This document shows positions 18,168 to 42,897 of a stretch of 64,000 nucleotides of DNA, piece by piece. Below the pieces are notes generated by a model that was not told where the DNA came from, searched no databases, and saw only the letters and a program-made list of their open reading frames with translations. The translations under genes and the position numbers were made by a program. Numbering within the stretch: the stretch's first letter is position 1; each line of letters begins with the position of its first letter. The DNA is from Candidatus Xenobium occultum (GTDB lineage: Bacteria; Vulcanimicrobiota; Xenobia; Xenobiales; Xenobiaceae), in NCBI GenBank assembly GCA_002423485.1, contig DIWH01000081.1, positions 11,612 to 75,611 on the forward strand. Direction: 5' to 3'.

Positions 18168-19025
18168 GTGCCCAGGACCTCCACCCGGGCCAGCAAGAGG
18201 GCCTCCGCCCCCGGGCCCGTGTTGAAGTGGGCCGGCGGCAAGAGCCAGTTGCTGGTCCAGTACGACCGCTGGTTTCCCCGCCGCTTCGCTGCCTACTTCG
18301 AGCCTTTCGTGGGCGGCGCAGCCGTGTTCTTTCACCTGTTGCCCGCCACCACCCGGCATCGGGTCCGCCTGTCGGACCTCAACGGGGACCTGATCGAGGT
18401 CTATCGGACGCTGCAGGGCGACCTGGAGGGTTTGATCCACCGTCTGGCAGAGCACGCCGGGCAGCACTCGGAGGAGCACTTCTACCGGGTCCGCTCCTGG
18501 ACGCCCGAGGATTTGGAGCCGGTGGAGCGGGCCGCTCGGACCATCTACCTGAACAAGACCTGCTACAACGGACTGTATCGGGTCAACTCCTCGGGGCAGT
18601 TCAACGTCCCCTTCGGTCGCTACAAGAATCCCAGCATCCTGGCCGAACCTCGGCTGCGTGCGGCGGCGCGTGCCTTGGAGGGCGTGGAACTGGCAGTCGA
18701 GGGGTTCGAGTCGGTCCTGGAGCACGCCCGGAAGGGAGACCTGGTCTACTTCGACCCTCCCTATCAGCCGCTGAGTGCCACCTCCAGCTTCACCGCCTAC
18801 ACGCGCTGGAATTTCGGTGCGGCCGAGCAGGTCCGCCTGGCCGAGGTCTTTCGCGAGCTGGCCTCGCGCCAGGTCAAGGTCCTCCTGTCCAACTCGGACA
18901 GCCCTCTGATTCACGAACTCTACCAGGGCTACCCGACCCACCTCGTCCGGGCCAACCGCTTCATCAACTCCAAGGGCGATTCCCGGCAGGCCATCCACGA
19001 GGTGCTGGTCTGCAGCTTCCGGTGA
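18168..19025 (+). CDS. DNA adenine (N6) methyltransferase, Dam/D12 class
   Basis: LKWAGGKSQLL N-terminus, FxGxG (FEPFVGGAAVF) SAM motif, DPPY catalytic motif. Confidence 0.85.
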   Translation: MPRTSTRASKRASAPGPVLKWAGGKSQLLVQYDRWFPRRFAAYFEPFVGGAAVFFHLLPATTRHRVRLSDLNGDLIEVYRTLQGDLEGLIHRLAEHAGQHSEEHFYRVRSWTPEDLEPVERAARTIYLNKTCYNGLYRVNSSGQFNVPFGRYKNPSILAEPRLRAAARALEGVELAVEGFESVLEHARKGDLVYFDPPYQPLSATSSFTAYTRWNFGAAEQVRLAEVFRELASRQVKVLLSNSDSPLIHELYQGYPTHLVRANRFINSKGDSRQAIHEVLVCSFR

Positions 19026-20296
19026 ACCTGGCCGAGGCCTGGGAGCTTCTGCTGAGGGACCTGCCCGAGGGCAGGCCGATCCGCGTGCTGGCGGCCGAGA
19101 TCAAGGCCCGAACGGGTCTGGAACCGCGGCTGATGGCCAAGTTCGACCATCGTCACCAGGTCCCGGAGGCCCTGCGACGGCGCAATCTGTTTGTGCTGCC
19201 GATCCGCAACGGGGAGTATGCCCTTCTTCCGGGCGAGGGCTACCACACCCTGGAGCCTTGTCCTGCCCCTGGCGACTTCCCGTCTCGGGCCGAGTTCACC
19301 TTGCGAACCCTCGAGCAGGGGCTCTCGGAGTCGCAGTACCTGGACCTGGCCTACCACTCGGGTCTTCTGTCGCACTTCACCGGGGTGGCCACGCTGTTCC
19401 CCACCATCCGCGGTCGCAAGAGGGCTCCGCGTTTCAGCTTCCGGGTGGGCGGGGCCGACCTGGATGTCGAGGGAGTCCAGGTTGAGGTGGATGCCGGCTA
19501 CGAGGGGCCCCAGGAGGTGCTGATCCTGGAGGCCAAGATCGGCGACCCGGCGGACTTCCACCTGCGTCAACTCTACTACCCCTTCCGCTTCTGGAGCCAG
19601 TTGACCCCCAAGCGGGTCCGTCCGATCTTCTTCACCTTCTCGCCCCAGGACGGAGTGATCCGGCTTCGGGAGTATCAATTTGAACCACCCGATTGTTACC
19701 GCGCCCCGCGGCTGGTCCGCGCAGCCGCCTATCGGCTCCGCCCCCGTCGGGGACGTCTGCCGGTCTGGCGGTGCGCCCCAAGCCAGGTCCTGAGCGTCCC
19801 TCAGGCCGACGATCTGGAGAAGGTGGCCCGGCTCCCCTTCCTCGTCTTTCAGGGGCTGGACCGACCCGGCCGCGTGGCCGAGGGGTTGGGTTTCAGCCCC
19901 CGACAGGGAGGCTACTACACCGAGGCCTGCCAGATGCTGGGCCTGGTCGGGATCGTCCAGGGGCGTCTGCACCTGACCGCGGCCGGGCGGGACTACGTCG
20001 AGATGGAGGTGGAGCCTCGCCACGAGTTCCTGGCGCGCCTGGTCCTGGAGCTGCCGATCATGCGGCGGGCGCTGGTGGAGATGCTTCTGTCTCCCTCCCG
20101 CCGACTCGAGCACTCAGCTCTGGTGGACCTGGTGGTCCGTGAGTCGGGGCTGGCGGGCAGCACCGCCTCGCGCCGGGCGGGAACCCTGCGCAGGTGGTTC
20201 GCCTGGCTGGGGCGGGCCCTGGGTCTGGTCCGGGTCGGCAAGGGCTCCATCGAACTGGTGGCGCCCGCTCGGGTTGAGGAACTCCGTCTTTTCTGA
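19022..20296 (+). CDS. Putative restriction endonuclease partner of the Dam-like MTase (424 aa, candidate PD-(D/E)xK motif)
   Basis: GTG start overlaps MTase stop (GTGA). Candidate nuclease motif VDAGYEGPQEVLILEAKIG (D...E-x-K). No other recognisable domain. Confidence 0.45.
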   Translation: MNLAEAWELLLRDLPEGRPIRVLAAEIKARTGLEPRLMAKFDHRHQVPEALRRRNLFVLPIRNGEYALLPGEGYHTLEPCPAPGDFPSRAEFTLRTLEQGLSESQYLDLAYHSGLLSHFTGVATLFPTIRGRKRAPRFSFRVGGADLDVEGVQVEVDAGYEGPQEVLILEAKIGDPADFHLRQLYYPFRFWSQLTPKRVRPIFFTFSPQDGVIRLREYQFEPPDCYRAPRLVRAAAYRLRPRRGRLPVWRCAPSQVLSVPQADDLEKVARLPFLVFQGLDRPGRVAEGLGFSPRQGGYYTEACQMLGLVGIVQGRLHLTAAGRDYVEMEVEPRHEFLARLVLELPIMRRALVEMLLSPSRRLEHSALVDLVVRESGLAGSTASRRAGTLRRWFAWLGRALGLVRVGKGSIELVAPARVEELRLF

Positions 20297-21951: not shown

Positions 21952-23651
21952 TCAAGACGGGGACTCGCTCTGGGCGCTGCGCAGCAAGGCGCGCATTTCC
22001 AGGGCGCTGGCGCAGGCCAGCAGCAGGCGCCGGAGCTTGGGGTCCAGGAAGGTGCGGGCGAGGTCGGTCAGGATCTCGATCTGTTCGACCTCCTTGTCCT
22101 GGGGCGTGAGGACCACCACGACCGCGCGAACCTTTTCGGGGACTCCGGTTGACCTGAAGCCCTCCGGGCACAGGGCCAGGCCGACCAGCGGGGCCGGAAT
22201 CCCCGGAAGACGGCCGTGGGCCAGGCGGACGCCCGGAGCCAGATCGTCTCCGGTCAACCTTTCGCGCCGGCGGATCGCCTCCAGCAGGATTTCTGGAGGG
22301 GAACCAATGGCGGTGCACAGGCCGCCGACGACGGTTTCAACGGCCTGGACCGGGTCATTGTCGGAGTCCAGCACGAAGAAGCCGCGGTCGCGGAGGAAGC
22401 GGACGAAGCGGGCGGGCTTGCGGCGGGCCAGCATCCGCTCCATCATGGGCCCGCTCAGCATGGAGGTCACCAGGGCCATGACCACCAGGGCCACCAGCAT
22501 CCGCTCCATCATGGGCCCGCTCAGCATGGAGGTCACCAGGGCCATGACCACCAGGGCCACCAGCATCCGGTCATCGATCAGGCCAGCCTCGCGGGCCAGC
22601 AGGCCCAGGATGATCTCCATGGCTCCGCGGGCGTTCATCCCGAAGCCCAGGGCCCAGGCATCCCGGCCAGGATGGCGCCGCCCCCGCACCCCAGGATCTT
22701 GCCGACGCAGGCGATGGCCAGCACCACCAGGCACAGGGTCGGGTCGAAGGATTCGACGAAGTTCACCCGCAGGCCGATGGAGGCGAAGAAGAGCGGAGCA
22801 AGGAGCGCTGCGACGAAGTGGTGCAGGATCAGCCGGGTCCGCTCGGTGATGTGCGCCGAATCCCCCAGGGCCACCCCGACCAGGAAGGCTCCGAAGATGG
22901 CGTGGACCCCGATCCACTCGGCGAAGGCCCCGCACAGGAGGGCCAGGGAGACGCACAAGGCCAGAACGCCGGCGGGCCAGGCGGTGTGGGCCTGCACCCG
23001 GACGATGATCTGGTTGAGCGCAACCCGACCCACCGTCAGCATTCCCGCCGCGAAGGCCAGCGTGGCCATCACGGTGGTCCGGATGTCGAAGCTGCCCTCC
23101 TCCAGATGCCGCCCCGGGATCAGGCCCAGGACCAGGGCGAAGAGGAGCCAGCCGATGAAGTCGTTGACGATGGCCGCCGCCAGGATGATCATCCCCAGGT
23201 CGGTGCGGAAGAGGTGCAGGTCCATCAGGATCTTGGCGATCACCGGCAGGGCAGAGATGGACAAGGCGGTGGCCAGGAAGAGGGCATACAGGAAAGTGCC
23301 GGATTCAGGGGGCTTGCCCAGCAGGTCGGGGGCGGCGTAGACCACGGCGAAGCCCAGCGCGAAGGGGAAGACCATCCCGGCGGCGCTGACGACCGTGGCC
23401 ATCCGGCCCTGGCGCTTGATCCGGGACAGGTCGACCTCCAGGCCCGCCACCAGCAGGAAGAGGACCACCGCCACCTGGGTCATCGCCTGCAGGCCGAAGG
23501 CCGCCGGCCCGGTCTCCGGGAAGAGGCGGGCGGTGGCCTCGGGCCACAGGGTGCCCAGGATGGTGGGGCCCAGGAGGACCCCGGCCAGGATCTCCCCCAG
23601 GACGGCGGGCTGACGAAGGGCTGAGGCCAACTCGCCCAGGGCCCGGGCCAC
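21952..23651 (-). pseudogene. Cation:proton antiporter (CPA2/KefB-NhaP type) with C-terminal PTS-EIIA-like domain; frameshifted
   Basis: TM domain in one frame (22635..23651). GFGMNARGAMEII helix and EIIA-like domain continue in another frame (21952..22700). Frame switch near 22650-22670. TM1 is encoded upstream of the only start codon. Confidence 0.6.
22432..22563. repeat. Perfect 66-bp direct tandem duplication (2 copies) inside the antiporter gene
   Basis: catccgctccatcatgggcccgctcagcatggaggtcaccagggccatgaccaccagggccaccag occurs twice consecutively. It encodes duplicated MLVALVVMALVTSMLSGPMMER. Confidence 0.9.
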
Positions 23652-24550
23652 CCCGACCAGGAGCCCCAGCGCCAGGAACAGCGAGACCAGGTCTGAGTGG
23701 CTCGTGGGGTCCGCCGCGGCCGCCAGGCCAGAAGGGCACAGGGCAGGTTCAGCAGCGTCAGGTCGGTGCCGTGGGGGAAGAGGCGCTCGAGAACCGAGGC
23801 CTGTTCCTGTTGGGGGGTCGGGACGACCAGCAGGTCGGCCGAATTCTCCCGGGAGTAGCGGATCGCCTCCAGCCCTTCTCTTCCCGCCAGGCTCTCCACC
23901 CGGACGGGCAACTGGTCGGCCTGGCAGTCTTCCAGCATATTGGCCAGTCGGTGCCGGGCAGCCAGGGCCGTCACCCGGCGCTCATCCTCGGTCTGGTCCA
24001 GGTTGGCGCCTTCCTCCAATGCCAGGTTGAGGGCGGGCAGCTCCAGCTCCTGGACCACGTGCAGGGCTTCCACGTTCTCGGCGCGGGCCAGTTCCAGGAC
24101 GTCTCGCAGCATCTCCGGGGAGGGTGTGGAGGGGTCCATCACGGCCACGATGCGTCGGAAGGGCGAGGGATTCGGGTCGGGAGAGGGCAAGAGCAGGGTC
24201 GGGCAGGGGGCGGTGCGGGCGATCCGGCGGGCCACCGAGCTGAAGAAGGCGCCCAGGGGACCCTCCTGCTCGAGGGCTCCCAGGACCACCAGGTCGCTAC
24301 TTCGGGCCTCTTCGGCCACCACGTCCTCGATGCGCCCTGTCCGGAAGGTCACGTCCCCGTGTGGCTCGGCAAGACTCCGGTCCAATAAAGCCTGCAACCG
24401 GCTCTGGGTGGCAGGGGTCTTGGCACCGACGTGCAGGAAGCGCATCCGCAGACCCAGGGAACGGCTCAGTCTGGAGGCCTCTCGGGCCACCGACTCGGCC
24501 GTGGGCGAGAGGGCGATCAGGACCAGCATCTCGCCGGGCGGTCGGCTCAC
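23480..24550 (-). CDS. Universal stress protein, tandem UspA domains; 3' end uncertain (runs into the antiporter N-terminus in another frame)
   Basis: Two UspA domains ending about aa 278 (VLERLFPHGTDLTLLNLPCALLAW). No stop for another roughly 80 codons, overlapping CPA TM1 coding in a different frame. Confidence 0.6.
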   Translation of the reverse strand: MSRPPGEMLVLIALSPTAESVAREASRLSRSLGLRMRFLHVGAKTPATQSRLQALLDRSLAEPHGDVTFRTGRIEDVVAEEARSSDLVVLGALEQEGPLGAFFSSVARRIARTAPCPTLLLPSPDPNPSPFRRIVAVMDPSTPSPEMLRDVLELARAENVEALHVVQELELPALNLALEEGANLDQTEDERRVTALAARHRLANMLEDCQADQLPVRVESLAGREGLEAIRYSRENSADLLVVPTPQQEQASVLERLFPHGTDLTLLNLPCALLAWRPRRTPRATQTWSRCSWRWGSWSGWPGPWASWPQPFVSPPSWGRSWPGSSWAPPSWAPCGPRPPPASSRRPGRRPSACRR

Positions 24551-24674: not shown

Positions 24675-25850
24675 TCAGGAGGTGGTGAGGAGCTTCTCGA
24701 CCTCGACCAGCTCTGGAGTGCCCCGGATTCCCGCCAGGATGGCCCCGAATTCCTTGCGGAACAGGACCCGCCCCCGTCCGTCTGCCAGGAGGATCCCGTC
24801 CCGGGCCTGGATTCGGATTCCCGCACGCCCCAGAGCGTCGAGCAGGCCGGGAAGATCCCGGTACCAGGCGTGACAGATGGCCCCATAGTCCTGGTTGATT
24901 TCCCGGAAGGCCCGCCGCAGGTTCGGGTGGGCGAGCAGGTTGGTGAAGAGTTGGGGGTCCTGCCGTCTGACCCAGGCCATCCAGGCCAGGATGTAGCCTC
25001 GGAACTCGGGCCAGGCCACCACCGTGGCGTCGGCATCGGCCAGGCGGGTCACCCAATCGCAGCCGCTTCCGGAGGGGCGATGGACCAGGTCCCGCACCAG
25101 GTCCAGTCCGGTGCGGGTTCCCGCGTGGTAGGCCGCGAACTCGTCCAGCAACCCGAAGATTCCGAATTTCTGGGTCGTCATGTTGGGATCCGGAGAGTCG
25201 ATGTAGGTCGCAAAGCGTTGAGCGTTCTTCAGGAAGGAGGGAAACGAGTCCGCCGCCTGGCGGGAGGAGGGGGTGGGCCGACCGCGGAGGACGAGGGTGT
25301 GACCTGGACGGAGGATGAGTCCGATGCTGCCAGGGTGGGCCAAAGCCTCGGGGTCGTTCCGGGTGGCCAGGACCCGGGTCAGGAAGTGGCAGGATTCGTG
25401 GACCATCACCGAGGCCGCGCTGACCAGTCGGCTCTTGGGCTGGTTGCGCACGAAGGCCCCGGCGTCCCAGGGCCCGAATCGGACCTCCCCGATGGACTGC
25501 GGAATGACGCCGGCATCGGCCAGCGCCTGGGCCATGACCCAGACACCCAAGGGGCTGGCCCTCTGGAGGTGCGTCAGGACTTCCTCCAGCGAGAGGTTGG
25601 CTTCCCGGGCCGCCACCGGGACCGCCAGTGACAGGCCGAAGGCTCCCAATACCCCCAGAAGGCGGCGGCGGGTCAGCAAGAGGGACGAATCCGGTCGGGC
25701 CAAGGCCAGCACCTCCTCTGCTCTCGATTCACCGGGCAGGAGGCGGCTCCTTTGCCCCTCGGGGGGCTTCGAGGGATCCCGCCGTCGAAAGCGAAGCGAT
25801 CCTGCCAGTGACCCGAATCGAGACCAGGGACCAGGGCGACCTGACGCCAC
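24675..25850 (-). CDS. Hypothetical Tat-secreted protein with HExxH motif
   Basis: Twin-arginine-like TRRRLLGVLGAFGLSLAVPVAA. VMVHESCHFLT HExxH motif. No confident family assignment. Confidence 0.5.
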   Translation of the reverse strand: MASGRPGPWSRFGSLAGSLRFRRRDPSKPPEGQRSRLLPGESRAEEVLALARPDSSLLLTRRRLLGVLGAFGLSLAVPVAAREANLSLEEVLTHLQRASPLGVWVMAQALADAGVIPQSIGEVRFGPWDAGAFVRNQPKSRLVSAASVMVHESCHFLTRVLATRNDPEALAHPGSIGLILRPGHTLVLRGRPTPSSRQAADSFPSFLKNAQRFATYIDSPDPNMTTQKFGIFGLLDEFAAYHAGTRTGLDLVRDLVHRPSGSGCDWVTRLADADATVVAWPEFRGYILAWMAWVRRQDPQLFTNLLAHPNLRRAFREINQDYGAICHAWYRDLPGLLDALGRAGIRIQARDGILLADGRGRVLFRKEFGAILAGIRGTPELVEVEKLLTTS

Positions 25851-25983
25851 AGCCTGGTCCGCCCCGCGCCTTGGCGGTGGCGGAAGCCATCGTCGGTCAA
25901 CTCTACCTCGTCTCGGTGGTGGCCGTTGCCGTCAGCCGCCTGGGCGAGGAGTCTCCTCGGACCTGAACCGGCGGGGCGAGGGC

Positions 25984-27054
25984 TCAGAACAAGAGCAGGT
26001 GGTTGGTGGCCAGGCCCAGCAGCAGGAGCAGGACTCCCAACCCCAGGCAGACCAGGAAGAGTCCCGCCACCATCGTCTCGGTGTCGGCTCGGGCTCGCCG
26101 ACGCAGGTCGCCTGCCGTCTGGGCCAACAGGTCCGGAAGCCGGCCCTCGTCCTCGCCCTGCCCGATCTGCTCGAGGATTTCTTCCGGGAAGAAGTCGACC
26201 GAGCCCAGGACATCCAGGACCGAGGCGCCCCAGCCGAGTTGGCTGGCGGACTGGAGCAGGTGTGACTCGTAGTGCAGGCTTCCCGTGCATCGGGCGGCCA
26301 GTTGGGCCGCCTGGGGCAGGGAGAGGCCGGAGGCCAGAAGCGAACTCAGCACCTCCAGGAAGCGGACGCCCACCTGCAGGCGCAGCGCCCGCCCGAACGT
26401 GCTGGTCCGGGCCAGCAGCCCCTCCAGCAGCGAACGCAGGGGGCGCCAGGAATACAGGACCCGCAGCGCAAGTCCCAGCACCACGAGCAGGCCCAACGCA
26501 GCCGCCAATGTTCCCAGGACGGCGATCAGCCACTTCTGAAGACCCTGGCGAAAAATCAGCGGAACCAGGGCCAGCATGACCACTCCACCCGACCAGATCA
26601 AGGGCCAGCGGAGTTGGTGCTGCAGGGCCTGGCGAAGGGCCAAGGTCTCCTTCAATGAGTCCGCCAGGACTCGCAACTGGCTGTCCAGGGTGCCTGATTC
26701 CTCGCCGGCCCGGACCATGCTGGTTTCATACGCTCCGAAGGTTCCCGGGAATCGCGTCATCGATTCGGACAGGCTCTGCCCGGAGACGATTCCTTGCGCC
26801 AGCCCCGGCGCCTGTCGAGGAAGGGTCTCCCGCCCGGCCTCCTCGACGGCGGTGGCGATCGATTCACCTGTCTCCAGACGGGTCCGCAGGGCCTCCAGGA
26901 AGGCGATTCGGGCGGGGAGAGGAGACTCGAAGAGGAAGTCCCGAAGGCGCTCGGCCCAGGAGGCTGAGGTCGCCGGGCAGGCTCCGGTCGGCGTGGCCGT
27001 GGGGTCGGGGACTTCCACGTCGGCCGCCCTCCAGCGCTCCTCTTCTTCGGCCAT
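25984..27054 (-). CDS. Type II secretion / type IV pilus platform protein, GspF/PilC family (short, 356 aa)
   Basis: Two T2SSF-like cytoplasmic domains (SGQSLSESMTRFPGTF...VRAGEESGTL) separated by TM helices, plus a C-terminal TM. Confidence 0.7.
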   Translation of the reverse strand: MAEEEERWRAADVEVPDPTATPTGACPATSASWAERLRDFLFESPLPARIAFLEALRTRLETGESIATAVEEAGRETLPRQAPGLAQGIVSGQSLSESMTRFPGTFGAYETSMVRAGEESGTLDSQLRVLADSLKETLALRQALQHQLRWPLIWSGGVVMLALVPLIFRQGLQKWLIAVLGTLAAALGLLVVLGLALRVLYSWRPLRSLLEGLLARTSTFGRALRLQVGVRFLEVLSSLLASGLSLPQAAQLAARCTGSLHYESHLLQSASQLGWGASVLDVLGSVDFFPEEILEQIGQGEDEGRLPDLLAQTAGDLRRRARADTETMVAGLFLVCLGLGVLLLLLGLATNHLLLF

Positions 27055-27069
27055 GATCTCCAGGGGAAC

Positions 27070-27354
27070 TCAGCGCAGGTACACCTCGCCGCCCAGGATG
27101 ATCAGGTCACGAGGTCCCAGGGAGGCCCCCTGAGGGATGGACTGGCCGTTGACCAGGGTGGTGCTGTTCACCGTCAGGCTCTGCAGGACCGGGACCCGGC
27201 CGATCCAGTGCAGGCTGGCATGCAGGCGCGAGACGGCCGTGCTCTCCAGGACGATGTCGCAGTGGGCGGCGCGACCGATCAGGGTGCGCTTCCCGGTCAC
27301 CTGATAGCGGGCCGCCGGCCGGCCATCTCCCAGCAGTTCCAGAATTCCCATCAC
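27070..27354 (-). CDS. FHA domain protein (94 aa)
   Basis: FHA signature RTLIGRAAHCDIVLESTAVSRLHASL...NGQSI. Confidence 0.75.
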   Translation of the reverse strand: MMGILELLGDGRPAARYQVTGKRTLIGRAAHCDIVLESTAVSRLHASLHWIGRVPVLQSLTVNSTTLVNGQSIPQGASLGPRDLIILGGEVYLR

Positions 27355-27698
27355 ATTGAAGTCTGCCGGCCGGCCTGTTGGTCGGGTTCAAGCCGACGGT
27401 ATTCGGCCAACAGGCTTCCCCTCTGGATTCGGGCACCCGGGGACAGGCGGGTCCGACCGCTGGCCGGCACGCCGTCCACCCGCACCGGGTTGGTGAAGGA
27501 ACGGTTGGAGATTTCGAAGGCTCCAGCCTCTTCGCACCAGTCCAGGACGGCGTGCACGCGCGAAACCGAGGGGTCCTCGAACTCCAGGGTGTTCTCCAGG
27601 CCTGAGCCCGGGCGCCCCAGAACCACCTGAGGACCTTGCAGGGGATGGACCTGCCCGGTATCCCGCCCCTCCAGGATGACCAGTTGGTGTGTGCTCAT
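27351..27698 (-). CDS. FHA domain protein (115 aa)
   Basis: FHA signature VVLGRPGSG...DPSVSRVHAVL...NPVRVDG. ATGA overlap with downstream FHA gene. Confidence 0.75.
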   Translation of the reverse strand: MSTHQLVILEGRDTGQVHPLQGPQVVLGRPGSGLENTLEFEDPSVSRVHAVLDWCEEAGAFEISNRSFTNPVRVDGVPASGRTRLSPGARIQRGSLLAEYRRLEPDQQAGRQTSM

Positions 27699-35736: not shown

Positions 35737-37542
35737 TCAGGAGACGGGGACCGGTTCGTCTTCGGCGGCCAGTGGGGAGGAGGTGCCCAGGGCATCCCCC
35801 AGGGCGTGCAGGTCGTGCCCCTTCAGGCTTTCGACCTCCACGGTCACGACGCGCAGGACCTCCTCGAGGGTGGTCCAACCCATGCTGATCTTCTCCAGTC
35901 CGTCGTCCAGCAGGGTGCGGATCCCCTCCGACGCGGCAGCACGGGAGATCCGGCGCTGGGAGGACTTGCGGAGGATCTGCTGTTTGATCCGGCCGGTCAT
36001 CGGCAGGACCTCGTACAGGCCCAGCCTTCCCGAGAATCCGGTCATTCCGCACTTCTGGCAGCCCTTGCCACGGAAGTAGGAGGTGGGCAGGGGGTGGTCG
36101 GAGGCCAGGCGCAAAAACTCCAGGCGTTCCTTGGCTGGAGTGGTCTCCTCGCGACAGTGTTCGCAGATTCTCCGGACCAGCCGCTGGGCCACCACCGCCA
36201 GAAGGGAAGAGGCCACCAGATAGGGGACGATCCCCATGTGCCGGAGGCGCGTCAGGGTGGCCGGGGCCGAGTTCGTGTGCACGGTGGACAGCACGAAGTG
36301 ACCGGTCTGGGCAGCCTGGAAGGCGATTTCAGCCGTCTCCAGGTCGCGGATCTCGCCGACCATGACGATGTCGGGGTCCTGGCGCAGGATCGAGCGCAGG
36401 GCCGAGGCAAAGGTCACCCCGGCCTTGTGGTTGACCTGGAGCTGGTTGACCCCGGGCAACTGGAATTCGATCGGGTCCTCGACGGTGACGATGTTGTCCG
36501 AGACCCGGTTGCGGACGTTCAGGGTGGCGTACAGGGTGGTCGTCTTGCCGGAACCGGTCGGACCGGTGATCAGGATCATGCCCTGGGGGTTCTCGACCAG
36601 GTTCTGGTAGAGGACCAGATGGTCGGGCAGCATGCCCAGCCCCGCAAGCTGCAGCAGTCCCACGTTCTTGTCCAGGATGCGCAGGACCGCCTTCTCTCCG
36701 TAATAGGTGGGCAGGGTGCTGACCCGCAGGTCCACCCAGCGTTGGCTGAGCCGAACCCGGCTGCGGCCATCCTGGGGACGCCGCCGCTCTGAGATGTCCA
36801 TCCCGGAAGCCAGCTTGATTCGCGAGATGACCGCGTTCTGGATGGCCTTGGGCAATTCGGCCATGGTGCGGAGCACCCCGTCCACCCGGTAGCGGACCCG
36901 CAGGTTGTTCTCGGTGGGCTCGACGTGGATGTCCGAGGCCTTGATCTCGATGGCCTCGACGATCAAGGCGTTGACCAGTTGGATGATCGGGGCGTCGTGT
37001 TCTCCGAGGGTTCCTTCCTTGGGGGCCTCTTCGGTCTCTTCGTCGGGCATGACGAAAAGCTCGACCTCGGCCCCGGATCGGGTCGTCCCGAAGCGGTCCA
37101 GGGCCTCGGTCATCGCGGCGGCGCGGCCCTTGATGGCCTCCTGGATGTCGCCTCGGGGGGCCACCACCCTCTCGATGGGCCGCGAGGTGTGCATGCTGAC
37201 CACGTCTTCGGCCGTGACGTCGAAGGGATCGGCCATGGCCAGGCGCAGCCTGCCATCCGGGGTCTCGCCCAGGGGGACCACGCAGAAGTTGCTGGCCACC
37301 TCGGTGGGCAGCATGGCCAGGGCCTCGGGCCGGACGTCTCCAGGGCGGATTCGCAGGAAGGGGACGCGATAGAGGTCCGCCATGAAGGCGGCCAGGGTGA
37401 TCTCATCGATCAGTCCGCCCTCCACCAGGGCCTGCGCGATGGACATGCGCGAGTAGCGCGGGTCCTGCAGCACGGCTCGGATGGCCTCGGGTCGCACCAG
37501 GCCGGCCTCGAACAGGCTGGCCAGGAGATCCTTGCGCTCCAT
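35737..37542 (-). CDS. Type IV pilus assembly ATPase PilB / GspE family
   Basis: N-terminal GspE_N domain, Walker A GPTGSGKTTT, Asp/His boxes, tetracysteine CEHC...CQKCGMTG. ATG 37542 with GGGAGG RBS. Confidence 0.85.
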   Translation of the reverse strand: MERKDLLASLFEAGLVRPEAIRAVLQDPRYSRMSIAQALVEGGLIDEITLAAFMADLYRVPFLRIRPGDVRPEALAMLPTEVASNFCVVPLGETPDGRLRLAMADPFDVTAEDVVSMHTSRPIERVVAPRGDIQEAIKGRAAAMTEALDRFGTTRSGAEVELFVMPDEETEEAPKEGTLGEHDAPIIQLVNALIVEAIEIKASDIHVEPTENNLRVRYRVDGVLRTMAELPKAIQNAVISRIKLASGMDISERRRPQDGRSRVRLSQRWVDLRVSTLPTYYGEKAVLRILDKNVGLLQLAGLGMLPDHLVLYQNLVENPQGMILITGPTGSGKTTTLYATLNVRNRVSDNIVTVEDPIEFQLPGVNQLQVNHKAGVTFASALRSILRQDPDIVMVGEIRDLETAEIAFQAAQTGHFVLSTVHTNSAPATLTRLRHMGIVPYLVASSLLAVVAQRLVRRICEHCREETTPAKERLEFLRLASDHPLPTSYFRGKGCQKCGMTGFSGRLGLYEVLPMTGRIKQQILRKSSQRRISRAAASEGIRTLLDDGLEKISMGWTTLEEVLRVVTVEVESLKGHDLHALGDALGTSSPLAAEDEPVPVS

Positions 37543-37543
37543 T

Positions 37544-39313
37544 CTACCTCCCTGCGGCAGGCCGGGTTGGATGCCCACCGACCGGCACGACGACCAGATT
37601 CTCCGAGCCCGCCGCGACCGGCATGGTGGCCAGGACCTCGCCTCGCGAGGGGTCGAGGACCAGGACGCAGGAAGGGAACCCGCCCAGGGCCCAGATCAGT
37701 GGGCTTCGGGGTCCGCTGGCCACTGCCTTCCAGGTCTGCAAAGGAAGCTGCATGTTGGCCGAACGGGTGTCGACGGCTTCGATTCGGGCCTGGGCATCGA
37801 CAGCCCACAGGGTGTTCCCGGCGCGCAGGAGGCGCACGGCGGGATGCCTCAGGGGCCAGGTCTCGATTTTCTGGAGGGTCAGCGCGTCCCGGATCTCCAC
37901 CTCGGGCCGGGTCCGGTGGGCGACGTACAGCCTTCGGCCCCCCGGCGAGACGGCCAAGGCACCCGCTTCCGGCGCGGCGGCCCGGGCCACCAATCGCGTG
38001 GGCCGCAACCCCATCACCGTGAGGTTCCCGGCACTGGCCAGGTACAGGACCGGGGTGCTCTTGTCCCCGTTTCGGTGTCGACCGAAGGCGATCTCCACGG
38101 GAGAGGCGTCGAAGGCCACCAGGGCTTCGGAGCGGGCCGGCAGTCGGCCGGGGAGCAACCTGCGGGGTTGCAGGTCGACCACCGTCAGGATCGAGCGCTG
38201 GGGGTGGACCACGAAGAGCATGTCCCCCTCGGGGGTGATCTCCAGTTCCCGAGGGTCCGAATCCAGGACCATCTGCCCCCGGATTCGGCCCTGGCGGACG
38301 TCCAGCAGCACCAGTCGACCGGCCTGGGGTTGGGTGGCGTAGAGCAGGTCGCCGTCCGGAGAAACTGCCAGGTCTCCGGCAGGCTCTTCCAGGGGCATCC
38401 GGGACAAGGTCTGTCCGGTCGCAAGCGCGTGGAACTCGACGCCGCGGCCTTGTCCCAGGGCCACGGCCGCCTCCAGCACCGGGCGGGGGGCCGGGCGGGT
38501 TGCCCACCAGGTCAGGCCCGCCAGCACGCTCAGCACGAGCATCAAGCCCAGCACCGCGGGCCATCGGGAAGGCCGGGCGGGAGGCGAGGACACGGGTGGC
38601 AGGCTGGAAGAGGCCCGTCGGTCCCGGACGACGTGGGCGGGCTTGTCGCTGATCGGTCGCTCCAGGGCTTCCGCCATCTCGCTGAAGCTGCGGTAGGACC
38701 TGGCGGGGTCGGCGCCCTGGCAGCGGGCGGCCAGCCACAGGAATTCCCCCGCGGCGGCGTCCGGCGAGAGTTGACCCAGGGTGAAGACGAGATCTCTCAT
38801 GGCCTCGGCCATGCGGGTGCCCTCGTCGGCGTTGGCTTCGGCCTGGCGGCTCAGGCCCAGGGCGCGCAGGCGCAGGTTCCCCTCGGGGGTGAGCCACAGG
38901 TCCGCCGGGTCCAGACGGATCGGAAGCCGCCCGCCCGAGTCCCGGTGCAGCAGGTCCAGGCCGTGGCACAACCGCGAGAGGACCCGGGCCACCCGGGCCA
39001 CCGACCAGGGTGTCCAGGAAGGACCCAGGGCCTGGGACAGGGGATGCCCCGGGCCGGGGTGCTGGGCCACCAGATAGCGCCCTTCCAGGAGGGTGGCCTC
39101 CAGCAGGATCGGCAAGCCGGGGTGGGAGGAGCGGGCCAGGCGGTGCAACTGGTCCTTCAGGCTGGGGACTTCGGCGACCACCTCGACCACACAGGGTTGC
39201 CCCTGCCCATCGACTGCGTCCAGGAGGGCCGGACCGGTTTCGGGGAGTGGTTCTCGGAGCCGGATCCGGCCCTCGCACAGGGTCAGAAGCGGGTGGACGG
39301 TGACCTGGGTCAT
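37544..39313 (-). CDS. Membrane-anchored Ser/Thr protein kinase-like pseudokinase with extracytoplasmic YVTN-type beta-propeller
   Basis: Hanks-kinase-like N-domain retaining HRD (LLHRDSGG) but lacking the Gly-loop and VAIK lysine (VVEVV); DFG replaced by ALG. One TM (WPAVLGLMLVLSVLAGLTWW). C-terminal repeats SPDGDLLYAT / SPGGRRLYVA. Confidence 0.6.
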   Translation of the reverse strand: MTQVTVHPLLTLCEGRIRLREPLPETGPALLDAVDGQGQPCVVEVVAEVPSLKDQLHRLARSSHPGLPILLEATLLEGRYLVAQHPGPGHPLSQALGPSWTPWSVARVARVLSRLCHGLDLLHRDSGGRLPIRLDPADLWLTPEGNLRLRALGLSRQAEANADEGTRMAEAMRDLVFTLGQLSPDAAAGEFLWLAARCQGADPARSYRSFSEMAEALERPISDKPAHVVRDRRASSSLPPVSSPPARPSRWPAVLGLMLVLSVLAGLTWWATRPAPRPVLEAAVALGQGRGVEFHALATGQTLSRMPLEEPAGDLAVSPDGDLLYATQPQAGRLVLLDVRQGRIRGQMVLDSDPRELEITPEGDMLFVVHPQRSILTVVDLQPRRLLPGRLPARSEALVAFDASPVEIAFGRHRNGDKSTPVLYLASAGNLTVMGLRPTRLVARAAAPEAGALAVSPGGRRLYVAHRTRPEVEIRDALTLQKIETWPLRHPAVRLLRAGNTLWAVDAQARIEAVDTRSANMQLPLQTWKAVASGPRSPLIWALGGFPSCVLVLDPSRGEVLATMPVAAGSENLVVVPVGGHPTRPAAGR

Positions 39314-39320
39314 GGTCTCG

Positions 39321-40571
39321 CTAGATCCGCTGCCAGGAGGCGACGTTCAGGGCCCCTCCCCCGGCGCCTCCGCCGAAGAAGGCCTCGAAGCCGGGCACGG
39401 GCTCCTGCTGCAGGGTGCTGGTGATGCGGGCTCCGCTGTGCACGAACTCGCCATCGCCGTAGGCGATCACCCGACCCACCAGGGTGAAGGCCGCGTTGGA
39501 GTAGATGCTGCCCTGGCAGAAGATCAGCCCTTCCAGGGTGGTGGACCGGTTGAACTCGACCCGGCCGCCTCCCACGGTGCCGTTCTGTCCGTCCAGGACC
39601 ACGATATCCAGTTTGTGGTTCAGGGGGGTGTTGAAGATGGCCGAGTTGGCGTTGCCCACCACGATGGTGCCCGTCCCGACCGGCGAGGTCTTGAAGGTGA
39701 CGCCGTTGGGGTAGTAGTGGACCTTCCCGTCCAGGTCGGTGCCGTCGTAGAGGGTCTCGTTGTGGGTCACCGCGCCGGCCAGCAGGGTGGCGGGGTCGGG
39801 GTTGGGCATGACTTCTCGTCCCGCCGGGGGATCATTGGTCAGCCTGCCGTCCGCGATGAAGGGCTCGGTGGCCGCCGAGGTGTCGTTGGGCACGATCTGG
39901 GCGGCATCCTGGATCTTGTCCTGGCCGGTGATGCTGCCCCGGGCCCGAACTTCCTGGCCCGGGCCCATGTTCAGTTGGGCCTGGACGGTGAGGTTGCCGG
40001 AGGTCAAGAGGTGCCCTTCGCCGCCGATCGGCTCGACCGAGACCCGGGCGCTCAGGACCAGGTCCCCGTTGCTCTTGACGGTGCCGTAGACCACCCCGGC
40101 GGCCCCCAGGTCGACGGTTCCGCCGGAGGAGATCGTGTAGTTGTATCCGGCCGGCTGGCCTTCCAGGAAGACCGCGACCTGACGAGAGAAGCTTCCGTTC
40201 TGGCTGGTGCCGGTGGAGAGCAGGTAGATCATGCCGGGAGGGACGCTGACCCCTCCTGGTCCGTTGAGGGCGGTGGCTCCCCCCGAGTTGTTGGTGACCT
40301 GGACGGAGTATTTCTGGTCCTGCTCGCCTCCCAGGGCCACATCGGTGAACCCCGCGCTCCAGCCGGTGTCGGCCGCAACCTGGTTCAGGGCCGCATGGAT
40401 GCCGGCCTCGGCCGACTGGACGGCCGCCACCGAAGCGAGGTTGGCCTGGATCATCCTGGAGTGGCGGGCGCCGATGGCCACCACGGCCACCAGGAAGACC
40501 AGCAGCAGGGCCAGGACCAGAAGCAGGATGGCGAGGGCGGAACCTCGAGCCGGGCGAAGCTTGATCAACAT
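39321..40571 (-). CDS. Type IV pilus assembly protein PilX-like minor pseudopilin
   Basis: PilX_N-like N-terminus (RGSALAILLLVLALLLVFLVAVVAIGARHSRMIQANLASVAAVQSAEAG). ATG 40571 with GAGGAGG RBS. Large Gly/Thr/Asn-rich C-domain. Confidence 0.6.
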   Translation of the reverse strand: MLIKLRPARGSALAILLLVLALLLVFLVAVVAIGARHSRMIQANLASVAAVQSAEAGIHAALNQVAADTGWSAGFTDVALGGEQDQKYSVQVTNNSGGATALNGPGGVSVPPGMIYLLSTGTSQNGSFSRQVAVFLEGQPAGYNYTISSGGTVDLGAAGVVYGTVKSNGDLVLSARVSVEPIGGEGHLLTSGNLTVQAQLNMGPGQEVRARGSITGQDKIQDAAQIVPNDTSAATEPFIADGRLTNDPPAGREVMPNPDPATLLAGAVTHNETLYDGTDLDGKVHYYPNGVTFKTSPVGTGTIVVGNANSAIFNTPLNHKLDIVVLDGQNGTVGGGRVEFNRSTTLEGLIFCQGSIYSNAAFTLVGRVIAYGDGEFVHSGARITSTLQQEPVPGFEAFFGGGAGGGALNVASWQRI

Positions 40572-40614
40572 CTGAAACGACCTCCTCGTTGGGGCATGGG
40601 CTCCCAATGCCTGG

Positions 40615-41190
40615 TCACTTGCGGAACCAGACGCGGTCGGTCACCTGCACCGAGGTCCGTCCCCACAGGTCGTTGGCGGCCACCAGCGCCACATCGGTGG
40701 TGGAGGTTCCCGAAAGGAAGCCCAGGGACTCGATGTGCGTGGCCACCAGCTTGTGGGTCGCGTTGCTGTCGGCTCGGACCTGGCTCGAGGTCGGGATCGG
40801 GGCCGGCAGCTCGGCGGTCTCCGAGAAGGCCTGTCGGCTGCGCATCAACCCCTGATCCGTCAGGTGGAAGGCCACCCAGGCTTGCCACAGGGCCCGCCCG
40901 CTGTCGTCGTAGCGGACCGTCCCGGAGACGTCCCGGGCCGAGGGGAGGACCACGGCGTTGGTCTCGAAGCGCACGCCGGCCCGCGGGGCGCTGGCCAACT
41001 CTTCGGTGACCTCGCGCAGGCCGGTCATGGCCTGGTGCTGCACCGTGGCGAAGTTCTCGGTCCTCCGGTAGGCGTCCAGGCCCATGGCCAGGCTGGCGTA
41101 GATGGTCCCCAGGATGAAGAGGAAGAGGGTCCCCCCGATCAGGACCTCGATCAGGGTGGCTCCCTGGCGTTCAGCGGAGACGCGCCACAT
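40615..41190 (-). CDS. Prepilin-type N-terminal cleavage/methylation domain protein (minor pilin/pseudopilin)
   Basis: Class III signal: leader ending in G, then ATLIEVLIGGTLF with Glu at +5. Confidence 0.7.
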   Translation of the reverse strand: MWRVSAERQGATLIEVLIGGTLFLFILGTIYASLAMGLDAYRRTENFATVQHQAMTGLREVTEELASAPRAGVRFETNAVVLPSARDVSGTVRYDDSGRALWQAWVAFHLTDQGLMRSRQAFSETAELPAPIPTSSQVRADSNATHKLVATHIESLGFLSGTSTTDVALVAANDLWGRTSVQVTDRVWFRK

Positions 41191-41656: not shown

Positions 41657-41814
41657 GATCTCGCCTTGCAGTCGAATCCATCGTGAATACCCGTGTCGAC
41701 AGGGGGCTTCGGCTGCTCTTCGCGGGCGCTTATGACCTTCATCATTGTTCGTCGGGCTGTCCCTGAAGGATGCTGGAGTGGTCTTCAGCGCATGAGTCGG
41801 GAGGGAGGGCACCC

Positions 41815-42897
41815 ATGTCAGAAGATTTGACCCCGCCGGACCTGTTGGAACTGCTCCGCACGGCACTGGATCACGAGGCCTCGGACCTGCATCTGGTGCG
41901 CGGGGCCCCGCCGAGCCTTCGGGTGGATGGCCGGATCCAGCGATTGCCAGGGCCCCCATTGCGGGCCTCCGACATCGAGACCCTGGTGGCCCCGGTTCTG
42001 AACGAGCGTCTGGCCCGCCGCCTGGAGCGAGCCCGGGACGTCGATTTCTCCTTCGAAGAGCCGGGCCTGGGCCGCTTCCGGACCAGCCTCTTCTACGAAC
42101 GCGGATCCCTGGCCGCCGCCTTCCGGGTGGTCCCCTGGAGCGTCCGCTCGGTGGAGGAGTTGGGGCTGCCCAGCGTGGTGAACGACCTGGTCATGCGGAA
42201 TGCCGGCCTGGTCCTGATCACGGGGGCGGTGGGGATGGGCAAGACCACCACCCTGAACACCATGATCGACCTGATCAACTCCGAGCGGCCCGTCCGGATC
42301 CTCACCATCGAGGATCCCATCGAGTTCATCCACACCCACAAGACAGGTCTGGTCTTGCAGCGGGAGATCCGGGGAGACGCCCGGAGCTTCCACCGCGCCC
42401 TGGTCGCGACGCTGCGTCAGGACCCCAACGTGATCTGCATCGGCGAGATGCGGGACTGGAGGACGGTGGCCACGGCCCTGACCGCCGCCGAGACGGGGCA
42501 CCTGGTGATCAGCACCTTGCATACCCAGGACACCGTCCACACCCTGGAGCGCATCGTCGACGTCTTCCCTCCCCATCAGCAGGGGCAGATTCGCTATCAG
42601 TTGGCCTCCGTGCTGCAGGCGGTCCTGTGCCAGAAGCTGCTGTTGAGGGTTTCAGGCAGGGGGCGGGTCCTGGCTTACGAGGTCATGATCGGCACCCTGG
42701 CCATGCGCCGGTTGATCCGCGAGAACAAGACCGACCAGATCCCGACGCTTCTGCAGACCGGGCGCGAGACCGGCATGATCTCGATGGACCAGTGCATCAA
42801 GAACCTCTACCTCGCCCGCAGCATCGGGTACGACGTGGCCCGAGCCGCCTTCAGCGACCCCGAGCACTTCAAAGAGCCTCAGTGGGAGCTGACTTGA
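41815..42897 (+). CDS. pilT: Type IV pilus retraction ATPase PilT
   Basis: ITGAVGMGKTTT Walker A, ILTIEDPIEF, IGEMRD, AHxxxTGHLVISTLHT PilT hallmarks. ATG 41815 with GGGAGGGAGGG RBS. Confidence 0.9.
   Translation: MSEDLTPPDLLELLRTALDHEASDLHLVRGAPPSLRVDGRIQRLPGPPLRASDIETLVAPVLNERLARRLERARDVDFSFEEPGLGRFRTSLFYERGSLAAAFRVVPWSVRSVEELGLPSVVNDLVMRNAGLVLITGAVGMGKTTTLNTMIDLINSERPVRILTIEDPIEFIHTHKTGLVLQREIRGDARSFHRALVATLRQDPNVICIGEMRDWRTVATALTAAETGHLVISTLHTQDTVHTLERIVDVFPPHQQGQIRYQLASVLQAVLCQKLLLRVSGRGRVLAYEVMIGTLAMRRLIRENKTDQIPTLLQTGRETGMISMDQCIKNLYLARSIGYDVARAAFSDPEHFKEPQWELT

Follow-up and report, generated by a model that had tools for sequence, protein, structure and literature searches.

The signals known to act on type IV pili and on secretion systems of type II (T2SS) mostly enter at the assembly ATPase, as is the case for cyclic di-GMP (c-di-GMP), FimX and the forkhead-associated (FHA) domains of Tad ATPases, and how the inner-membrane platforms of these machines are switched on is poorly understood. 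The subject here is a GspF/PilC-like platform gene of Candidatus Xenobium occultum, which in its relatives encodes two N-terminal FHA domains, and which is disrupted (25984-27698, minus strand) in a window of 64,000 nucleotides, the whole stretch of contig DIWH01000081.1 that was analysed. The closest described systems are the FHA-fused Tad ATPases, among them KilF, from the Kil system of Myxococcus (PMC8460266), and CpaF of class III (PMC12019362). These likewise consist of a core component of a type IV filament machine fused to an N-terminal FHA domain, which suggests that assembly is controlled by phosphothreonine (pThr), but there the FHA domain resides on a cytoplasmic ATPase whereas here it resides on a membrane platform and is duplicated (PMC8460266; PMC12019362). 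A second precedent is the MviN pseudokinase, to which the FHA domain of FhaA binds after PknB has phosphorylated it (PMC12599244). By this example, an FHA domain could plausibly dock on a membrane protein with an inactive kinase fold after another kinase has phosphorylated that protein; in the present case the interaction is hypothetical, and the pseudokinase is encoded in a pilB operon and carries a beta-propeller ectodomain instead of being part of a lipid II flippase. FHA-fold cytoplasmic domains are also attached or recruited to the membrane secretion machines of type III (T3SS; SctD/YscD) and type VI (T6SS; Fha1/TagH). However, the FHA-like domain of YscD lacks the pThr-binding residues that the FHA domains described here retain, and no T3SS or T6SS context is seen at the locus.

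In the window the gene appears as three open reading frames (ORFs), which are the pieces of one ancestral gene for a protein of about 572 aa composed of FHA1, FHA2, an acidic or Thr/Pro-rich linker and a GspF/PilC-like platform, and this gene has been cut twice. The nearest relatives of the 356-aa platform ORF in a homologue search are single proteins of 572-575 aa (54-93% identity) with the domain order FHA, FHA, T2SSF, and in a protein alignment the three window ORFs placed end to end are collinear with them; the disrupted gene as a whole is orthologous to these proteins (P0002-P0009). In some 30 related clusters of proteins (38-93% identity) the FHA-FHA-GspF arrangement forms a single polypeptide of 559-613 aa. 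The family was searched with a profile against 1.84 billion cluster representatives and with a second, word-indexed search, and these yielded about 25 further clusters with the two-FHA architecture (559-613 aa), a few versions with one FHA domain (448-483 aa), more distantly related FHA-T2SSF fusions, and GspF proteins that lack FHA domains and are short (about 330 aa). None of the clusters found in this way holds a split gene outside the near-clonal lineage of the window.

Both cuts can be located by DNA alignment with the relatives. The first is a gap of 4 nucleotides in the linker between FHA1 and FHA2 (27366-27375, minus strand), which occurs only in the window and its near-identical copies; the relatives carry GCC(GCCC)2GG at this position, and the ancestral deletion site is a slippage-prone tandem repeat of the 4-nucleotide unit GCCC. 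Fragment 1 (27351-27698, minus strand) accordingly comprises the FHA1 domain, ancestral codons 1 to ~110, followed by about four out-of-frame codons and a TGA. The second cut is a change from TGG to TGA between FHA2 and the GspF part (27070-27072, minus strand), again confined to the window lineage, and it replaces Trp211 of an LRW.P motif at the end of FHA2, a residue that is invariant in the fused relatives even at 31-43% identity. Fragment 2 (27070-27354, minus strand) holds the FHA2 domain, and its GTG or ATG 'start' goes back to Val-Met codons that are internal in the fused orthologues. Fragment 3 (25984-27054, minus strand) is the platform part; it contains two T2SSF repeats as well as three hydrophobic segments, and the codon that serves as its ATG encodes Met217 inside the orthologues. 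The FHA2 and GspF ORFs share one frame and are separated by just the TGA and five codons, and adding 4 nucleotides at the deletion site restores a frame of 572 codons with a single internal TGA. The apparent start codons and the apparent translational coupling are therefore leftovers of internal codons.

The preliminary description of the locus had recognised the three ORFs of 115, 94 and 356 aa as FHA, FHA and GspF-like proteins, and Pfam bears this out on the minus strand at the positions given above. FHA ORF 1 (115 aa) matches the FHA model with an E-value of 1.3e-8 and 35.6 bits, FHA ORF 2 (94 aa from the GTG start or 93 aa from the ATG) with 9e-12 and 45.7 bits, and the GspF/PilC-like ORF (356 aa) matches T2SSF in two stretches with 8.6e-25 and 87.6 bits, the gathering cutoffs being 20.7 bits for FHA (PF00498) and 25.2 bits for T2SSF (PF00482). 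The Pfam Yop-YscD_cpl model also matches both FHA fragments. The GC content at third codon positions of the three ORFs (0.77-0.86) is a typical coding value for this window of 68% GC. The junction of the two FHA ORFs reads ...ACT TCA ATG TGA TGG GAA..., and the ATGA overlap that had been reported is in fact a GTGA overlap if the GTG start is used, or a single shared base (TGATG) if the start is the ATG favoured by gene callers. The junction between FHA2 and GspF reads ...CTG CGC TGA GTT CCC CTG GAG ATC ATG..., in which a GGAG lies 3 nucleotides upstream of the GspF ATG and the ATG itself 15 nucleotides past the TGA. Inspection of the junction sequences revealed no Shine-Dalgarno-like sequence ahead of the FHA1 or FHA2 ORF, and a scan of 25.7-28 kb for promoters and terminators found none. 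The earlier picture of two tandem, translationally coupled single-FHA proteins thus describes a derived state, which a deletion that shifts the frame and a nonsense change brought about in one strain, and FHA, FHA and PilC are not conserved as separate genes in related genomes: the relatives outside the near-clonal window lineage all carry a single ORF. The functional link between FHA domains and platform which had been deduced from their adjacency is on the other hand stronger than was claimed, because both FHA domains and the GspF-like part form one polypeptide in the relatives, as in a Rosetta-stone fusion.

The surroundings of the gene are shared with its relatives. From PilB to an S8 protease the gene order is common to the window and to loci L006 (90% identity), L007 (83%) and L003 (62%), and it runs pseudokinase, PilB, ABC, ABC-2, KAS III, GH3, LPG-synthase-like, amino-acid permease, [FHA-FHA-GspF], K+ channel, 342-aa protein, Usp, Na+/H+ exchanger-EIIA and S8 protease. 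The identity of gene order in the three loci establishes the fused genes as orthologues and the fusion as the ancestral state, and the split lineage is near-clonal and nested among fused orthologues at 90-93% identity. One orthologue sits in the metagenome-assembled genome 'bacterium UBP9_UBA1432'. UBP9 is the basal, anaerobic class of Candidatus Eremiobacterota (WPS-2) (PMC6664022).

The platform part (~310 aa for the T2SSF portion) is matched in both sequence and fold by PilC of M. xanthus (3jc8) and EpsF of V. cholerae (2vma/3c1q). Its NCBIfam scores fall far below the equivalog cutoffs (95.8 against 424 for GspF TIGR02120; 54.9 and 40.9 against 700 for PilC NF052606/NF052607), which makes it a member of the superfamily and not an orthologue of a characterised GspF or PilC. 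Like these proteins it possesses two helical cytoplasmic T2SSF repeats with hydrophobic segments between and after them, and genes for a PilB-type ATPase, PilT and pilin-like proteins are found near the window gene; unlike them it is shorter, carries two N-terminal FHA domains in the relatives, is never encoded beside an ATPase gene and has several paralogues per genome. By inspection, the hydrophobic stretches of the 356-aa ORF lie at about residues 150-170, 175-200 and 328-356, where an AlphaFold2 (AF2) model of an orthologue shows long helices. Tad platforms (TadB/TadC) have a single T2SSF domain per protein of ~300 aa, are encoded by paired genes and lie next to CpaF/TadA, a pattern that the gene does not fit: there are two T2SSF stretches in one protein, no TadA/CpaF was found, and the nearby ATPase is of the PilB type. 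In the FHA domains the motifs that contact pThr are kept and are invariant among orthologues (LGRPGSG, SVSRVHA and SNRS in FHA1; IGRAAH, AVSRLHA and VNSTTLVNG in FHA2). FHA1 of an orthologue is modelled by AF2 with a predicted local distance difference test (pLDDT) value of 85-94 and matches the folds of GarA, OdhI and FhaA, and FHA structures of FhaA also turn up when FHA2 and FHA1 are compared by sequence and fold. A description of an FHA domain on a GspF/PilC platform was not found in the literature, and the names that databases give to the family are generic ('type IV pilus assembly protein PilC', 'FHA protein'). The FHA-FHA-GspF family is an undescribed architecture, and the window locus is a disrupted member of it.

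A scan of metagenomes for the family returned at least five loci. An intact paralogue of 569 aa (P0217) lies on another contig of the same metagenome (L027 10001-11710, JGI 3300002498 TOLCLC_10013066), the composition of which fits the window (GC 0.676, tetranucleotide profile r = 0.992), and one related assembly contains three paralogues. Loss of the window copy would be buffered by such intact paralogues. Across the family there are several paralogues per genome and all of them are orphans (loci L027; L018, L026; L022, L024). One paralogue group always follows a RelA/SpoT-like gene and an ORF of 80-94 aa, and lies near genes for FIST, hybrid histidine kinase, ABC-F, GGDEF, MshEN-GAF and HD-GYP proteins, a c-di-GMP and two-component neighbourhood; two more groups have a single, degenerate FHA domain. 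Pilus genes were not found within 6-10 kb of the paralogues, nor was a separately encoded FHA1 gene found upstream of the single-FHA members P0060 and P0207. In the window, the relatives and the paralogues alike no ATPase gene adjoins the FHA-FHA-GspF gene, and the possibility raised beforehand that the GspF-like protein belongs to a complete, separate T2SS or Tad locus finds no counterpart in any of these contexts, in all of which the gene is an orphan.

The pilB operon noted in the preliminary description lies close by and on the same strand. Its PilB-type assembly ATPase (35737-37578, minus strand; MshEN and T2SSE domains, no FHA) has no adjoining platform gene and is about 8 kb from the FHA-FHA-GspF locus, the interval being occupied in the window and in the relatives by ABC transporter, KAS III, GH3, LPG-synthase-like and amino-acid permease genes. 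The start of pilB is overlapped by a gene for a membrane protein of 589 aa (37544-39313, minus strand), upstream of which are two genes recognised as pilin-like by sequence inspection (39321-41190, minus strand), and a PilT-family retraction ATPase (41770-42897, plus strand) is encoded divergently from the operon. Apart from PilT, the operon at 35.7-41.2 kb contains the only type IV filament genes near the locus. The 191-aa pilin-like product begins with a G/ATLIEVLIGG sequence that resembles a prepilin-type or class III signal, and the 428-aa product has a hydrophobic N-terminal anchor and a Gly/Thr-rich, beta-rich body; neither gene has a Pfam match. Among the window ORFs that were scanned, no prepilin peptidase, PilM/N/O or secretin was detected with Pfam, and no catalytically competent Ser/Thr kinase or PP2C phosphatase.

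The 589-aa protein is laid out as an N-terminal kinase fold, a Ser/Pro-rich segment, one transmembrane helix and an extracytoplasmic beta-propeller, and its juxtamembrane segment reads RRASSSLPPVSSPP. It has no Pfam kinase match even at E<=1, and a phmmer search against the PDB returned only RIPK3, MST4 and STK25 at E-values of 0.4-0.9. The AF2 model of its N-terminal 225 aa (pLDDT 77) nevertheless adopts a bacterial Hanks kinase fold, for which the top Foldseek matches are S. aureus PknB/Stk1 and M. tuberculosis PknI, PknA and PknE (E-values of 4e-10 to 2e-8, TM-scores of 0.6-0.72). The catalytic residues are lost, with VEV in place of VAIK, a variable residue (D/E/H) in place of the HRD Asp, LDPAD in place of KPxN and (A/M/F)LG in place of DFG. 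As the beta3 Lys, the HRD Asp, the K.xN motif and the DFG Asp are all replaced, the kinase-fold domain is that of a pseudokinase, in agreement with what had been suspected of this gene beforehand. The protein is kept at 50-88% identity across about ten clusters of this lineage. No earlier description seems to exist of a pseudokinase receptor in a pilB operon.

The lack of a platform gene beside pilB, together with the conserved gene order 8 kb downstream, makes FHA-FHA-GspF the obvious candidate for the missing platform. It is proposed that the intact protein of the relatives, an orphan, would be the inner-membrane platform of the type IV filament machine (pilins, PilB and PilT) encoded 8-15 kb away, and that its two cytoplasmic FHA modules would bind phosphothreonine on a partner. 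By analogy with the binding of a pThr on the MviN pseudokinase by FhaA, the best candidate for this partner may be the pseudokinase/beta-propeller receptor of the pilB operon, alternatives being PilB or the Thr-rich PTATPTG linker of the platform itself. Engagement of the platform with the motor could then depend on a phosphorylation signal, and would be coupled to an extracytoplasmic cue. Gating of the platform by phosphorylation is hypothesised on these grounds. A more far-reaching version would have FHA-FHA-GspF as a class of platforms for type IV filaments, undescribed so far, in which the platform, and not the ATPase, receives the phospho-signal, with the FHA domains docking on the phosphorylated pseudokinase so that an extracytoplasmic cue licenses assembly, orphan paralogues plugging one PilB into Ser/Thr phosphorylation, c-di-GMP and two-component inputs, and the three-piece allele of the window remaining functional with its FHA domains working in trans. 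Taken as a whole, this version is speculative and rather unlikely.

The chromosome stretch around the disrupted gene is itself in decay. Immediately downstream and convergent with it lies the remnant of a K+ channel gene (Ion_trans_2; 25790-25960, plus strand), which compared with L006, L007 and L003 has suffered a deletion of 504 nucleotides with a short TCGCC-type microhomology at its flanks; the deletion junction is at about 25825-25835 and an ORF of 52 aa is left. The remnant (52-57 codons) is 67% identical to its orthologue, with a ratio of non-synonymous to synonymous changes (N/S) of ~2, values consistent with neutral drift in a gene that has been dead for some time. About 3 kb beyond it, the gene for a Na+/H+ exchanger-PTS EIIA fusion (21952-23705, minus strand; 566 aa in relatives) carries three lesions. 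A T to C change at ~23704 removes the ATGA that is both the exchanger start and the Usp stop, and as a result Usp reads through by about 55 codons; a deletion of 13 nucleotides near 22640-22650 lies inside the transporter domain; and there is a perfect tandem duplication of 66 nucleotides (22428-22569), which is missing in L002, an ENA assembly that is otherwise identical. The remaining 13 genes of the stretch that were compared are intact.

The reading of the locus as one disrupted gene has to be weighed against others. The ORF layout does resemble a coupled operon, and it could be argued that the ancestral arrangement comprised two separate FHA proteins coupled to a short PilC and that the fusion in relatives is derived. 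This is scarcely credible, given that the fusion is family-wide down to 38% identity and present in several paralogue groups while the split is found in one near-clonal lineage, and that one transition is enough to turn the invariant Trp codon into this stop. Nor do the frameshift and the stop look like sequencing or assembly errors in a gene that is intact in the organism. Indel errors are present in some data sets for this organism, as the compensating frameshifts within the GspF part of assembly P0005 / L016 demonstrate, and the 100% identical L001 and the near-identical L002 may share culture or reads with the window. The JGI contig TOLCLC_10005265 is identical to the window (100%) over 21 kb, and the ENA assembly L002 is identical bar the 66-nucleotide duplication and one more mismatch and gap, the absence of the duplication marking L002 as a separate assembly. 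The identical split is seen in the separate assemblies L001, L002 and L016, with the 4-nucleotide deletion and the TGA recurring in JGI 3300002498, JGI 3300001567, ENA ERZ27315036 and the NCBI record P0001, and a G to A substitution and a 4-nucleotide deletion are unlike typical homopolymer errors, all of which renders an artefact very improbable. Programmed recoding is implausible as well, judging from the sequence, as there is no slippery heptamer at the frameshift and read-through of the TGA would be required in addition.

The alternative of most weight is a functional gene fission, in which a three-cistron operon is translated by termination and reinitiation and FHA1, FHA2 and the short GspF still form a working complex. 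Several features are consistent with it: both lesions fall outside the Pfam domain cores, the start codons lie 0-15 nucleotides from the upstream stop, GGAG precedes the GspF ATG, and the window branch has no excess of non-synonymous change. The natural one-FHA members P0060, P0062 and P0207 moreover start exactly at the Met of fragment 2, showing that a protein beginning there is viable. The N/S of the window branch is 0.36-0.38 (13-16 non-synonymous against 36-42 synonymous changes), within the range of the intact neighbours, and the pairwise omega of the gene is 0.14-0.19. However, the exchanger gene, which is clearly dead, also gives an N/S of 0.38; the ratio therefore tells only that the lesions are recent and nothing about function, and dN/dS was rejected as a functional test. 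The placement of both lesions in linkers was likewise rejected as strong evidence of selection for a functional split, because one of them arose in a slippage-prone GCCC repeat and 14-16% of the possible nonsense substitutions fall in linkers, so that a 'clean' placement is not improbable by chance. Fission is further disfavoured by the destruction of the invariant Trp211 and its LRW.P motif, by the want of a Shine-Dalgarno-like sequence for FHA1 and FHA2, and by the retention of the fusion in every other sampled lineage, which argues that the covalent linkage matters; two independent lesions in one gene, beside two more decayed genes, are the usual signature of a pseudogene. A working fission is on this evidence a possibility of the second rank, and the window copy is on balance probably a young pseudogene or crippled allele. 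The lesions are most likely recent and leave at best a crippled allele, the loss of which is probably tolerated owing to the intact paralogues and the decaying stretch of chromosome.

A number of observations weigh against the interpretation of the window copy as a decaying gene and of the intact protein as a phospho-gated pilus platform. Each fragment retains a complete Pfam domain and a usable start codon, and with whole domains, start codons and the GGAG the fragments could be translated even now and come together without covalent bonds. The substitutions specific to the lineage reveal no relaxed constraint, and none of them is at the key FHA motifs. That the intact paralogue P0217 belongs with the window in one genome is suggested only by its composition and by the sample from which it comes. 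As to the mechanism, the analysis turned up no active kinase, phosphatase or phosphosite, and in the AF2 model of a fused orthologue FHA2 and the linker have a pLDDT of <50, from which the packing of the domains is not inferable. Finally, the distant paralogues lie amid c-di-GMP and two-component genes, and a pilus role for the whole family is for this reason not established.

Two other loci of the window are of interest in their own right. Downstream of the disrupted gene lies a conserved protein of 342-391 aa (24675-25850, minus strand). A twin-arginine-like signal (RRRLLGVLGAFGL) and a motif that resembles HExxH (VHESCH) make it a possible secreted metalloprotease; neither Pfam nor NCBIfam has a match for it, and its N/S of ~0.7 is high in both the window and the L006 lineages. 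At 18168-20293 a D12-class N6-adenine methyltransferase gene stands beside one for a 424-aa DUF6996/DUF6997/DUF7226 protein. The pair is kept in relatives and may constitute a restriction-modification or defence pair.

For annotation, the locus serves as a reminder that small single-domain ORFs with overlapping stop and start codons can be a broken fusion gene, and the window copy should be flagged as disrupted. For the biology of the family, the FHA-platform and the pseudokinase of the pilB operon provide a concrete and testable pair of candidate partners, and the existence of a platform with two phospho-threonine readers, which is conserved in the uncultured, anaerobic UBP9 lineage and has been multiplied into paralogues, points to regulation at the level of the platform.

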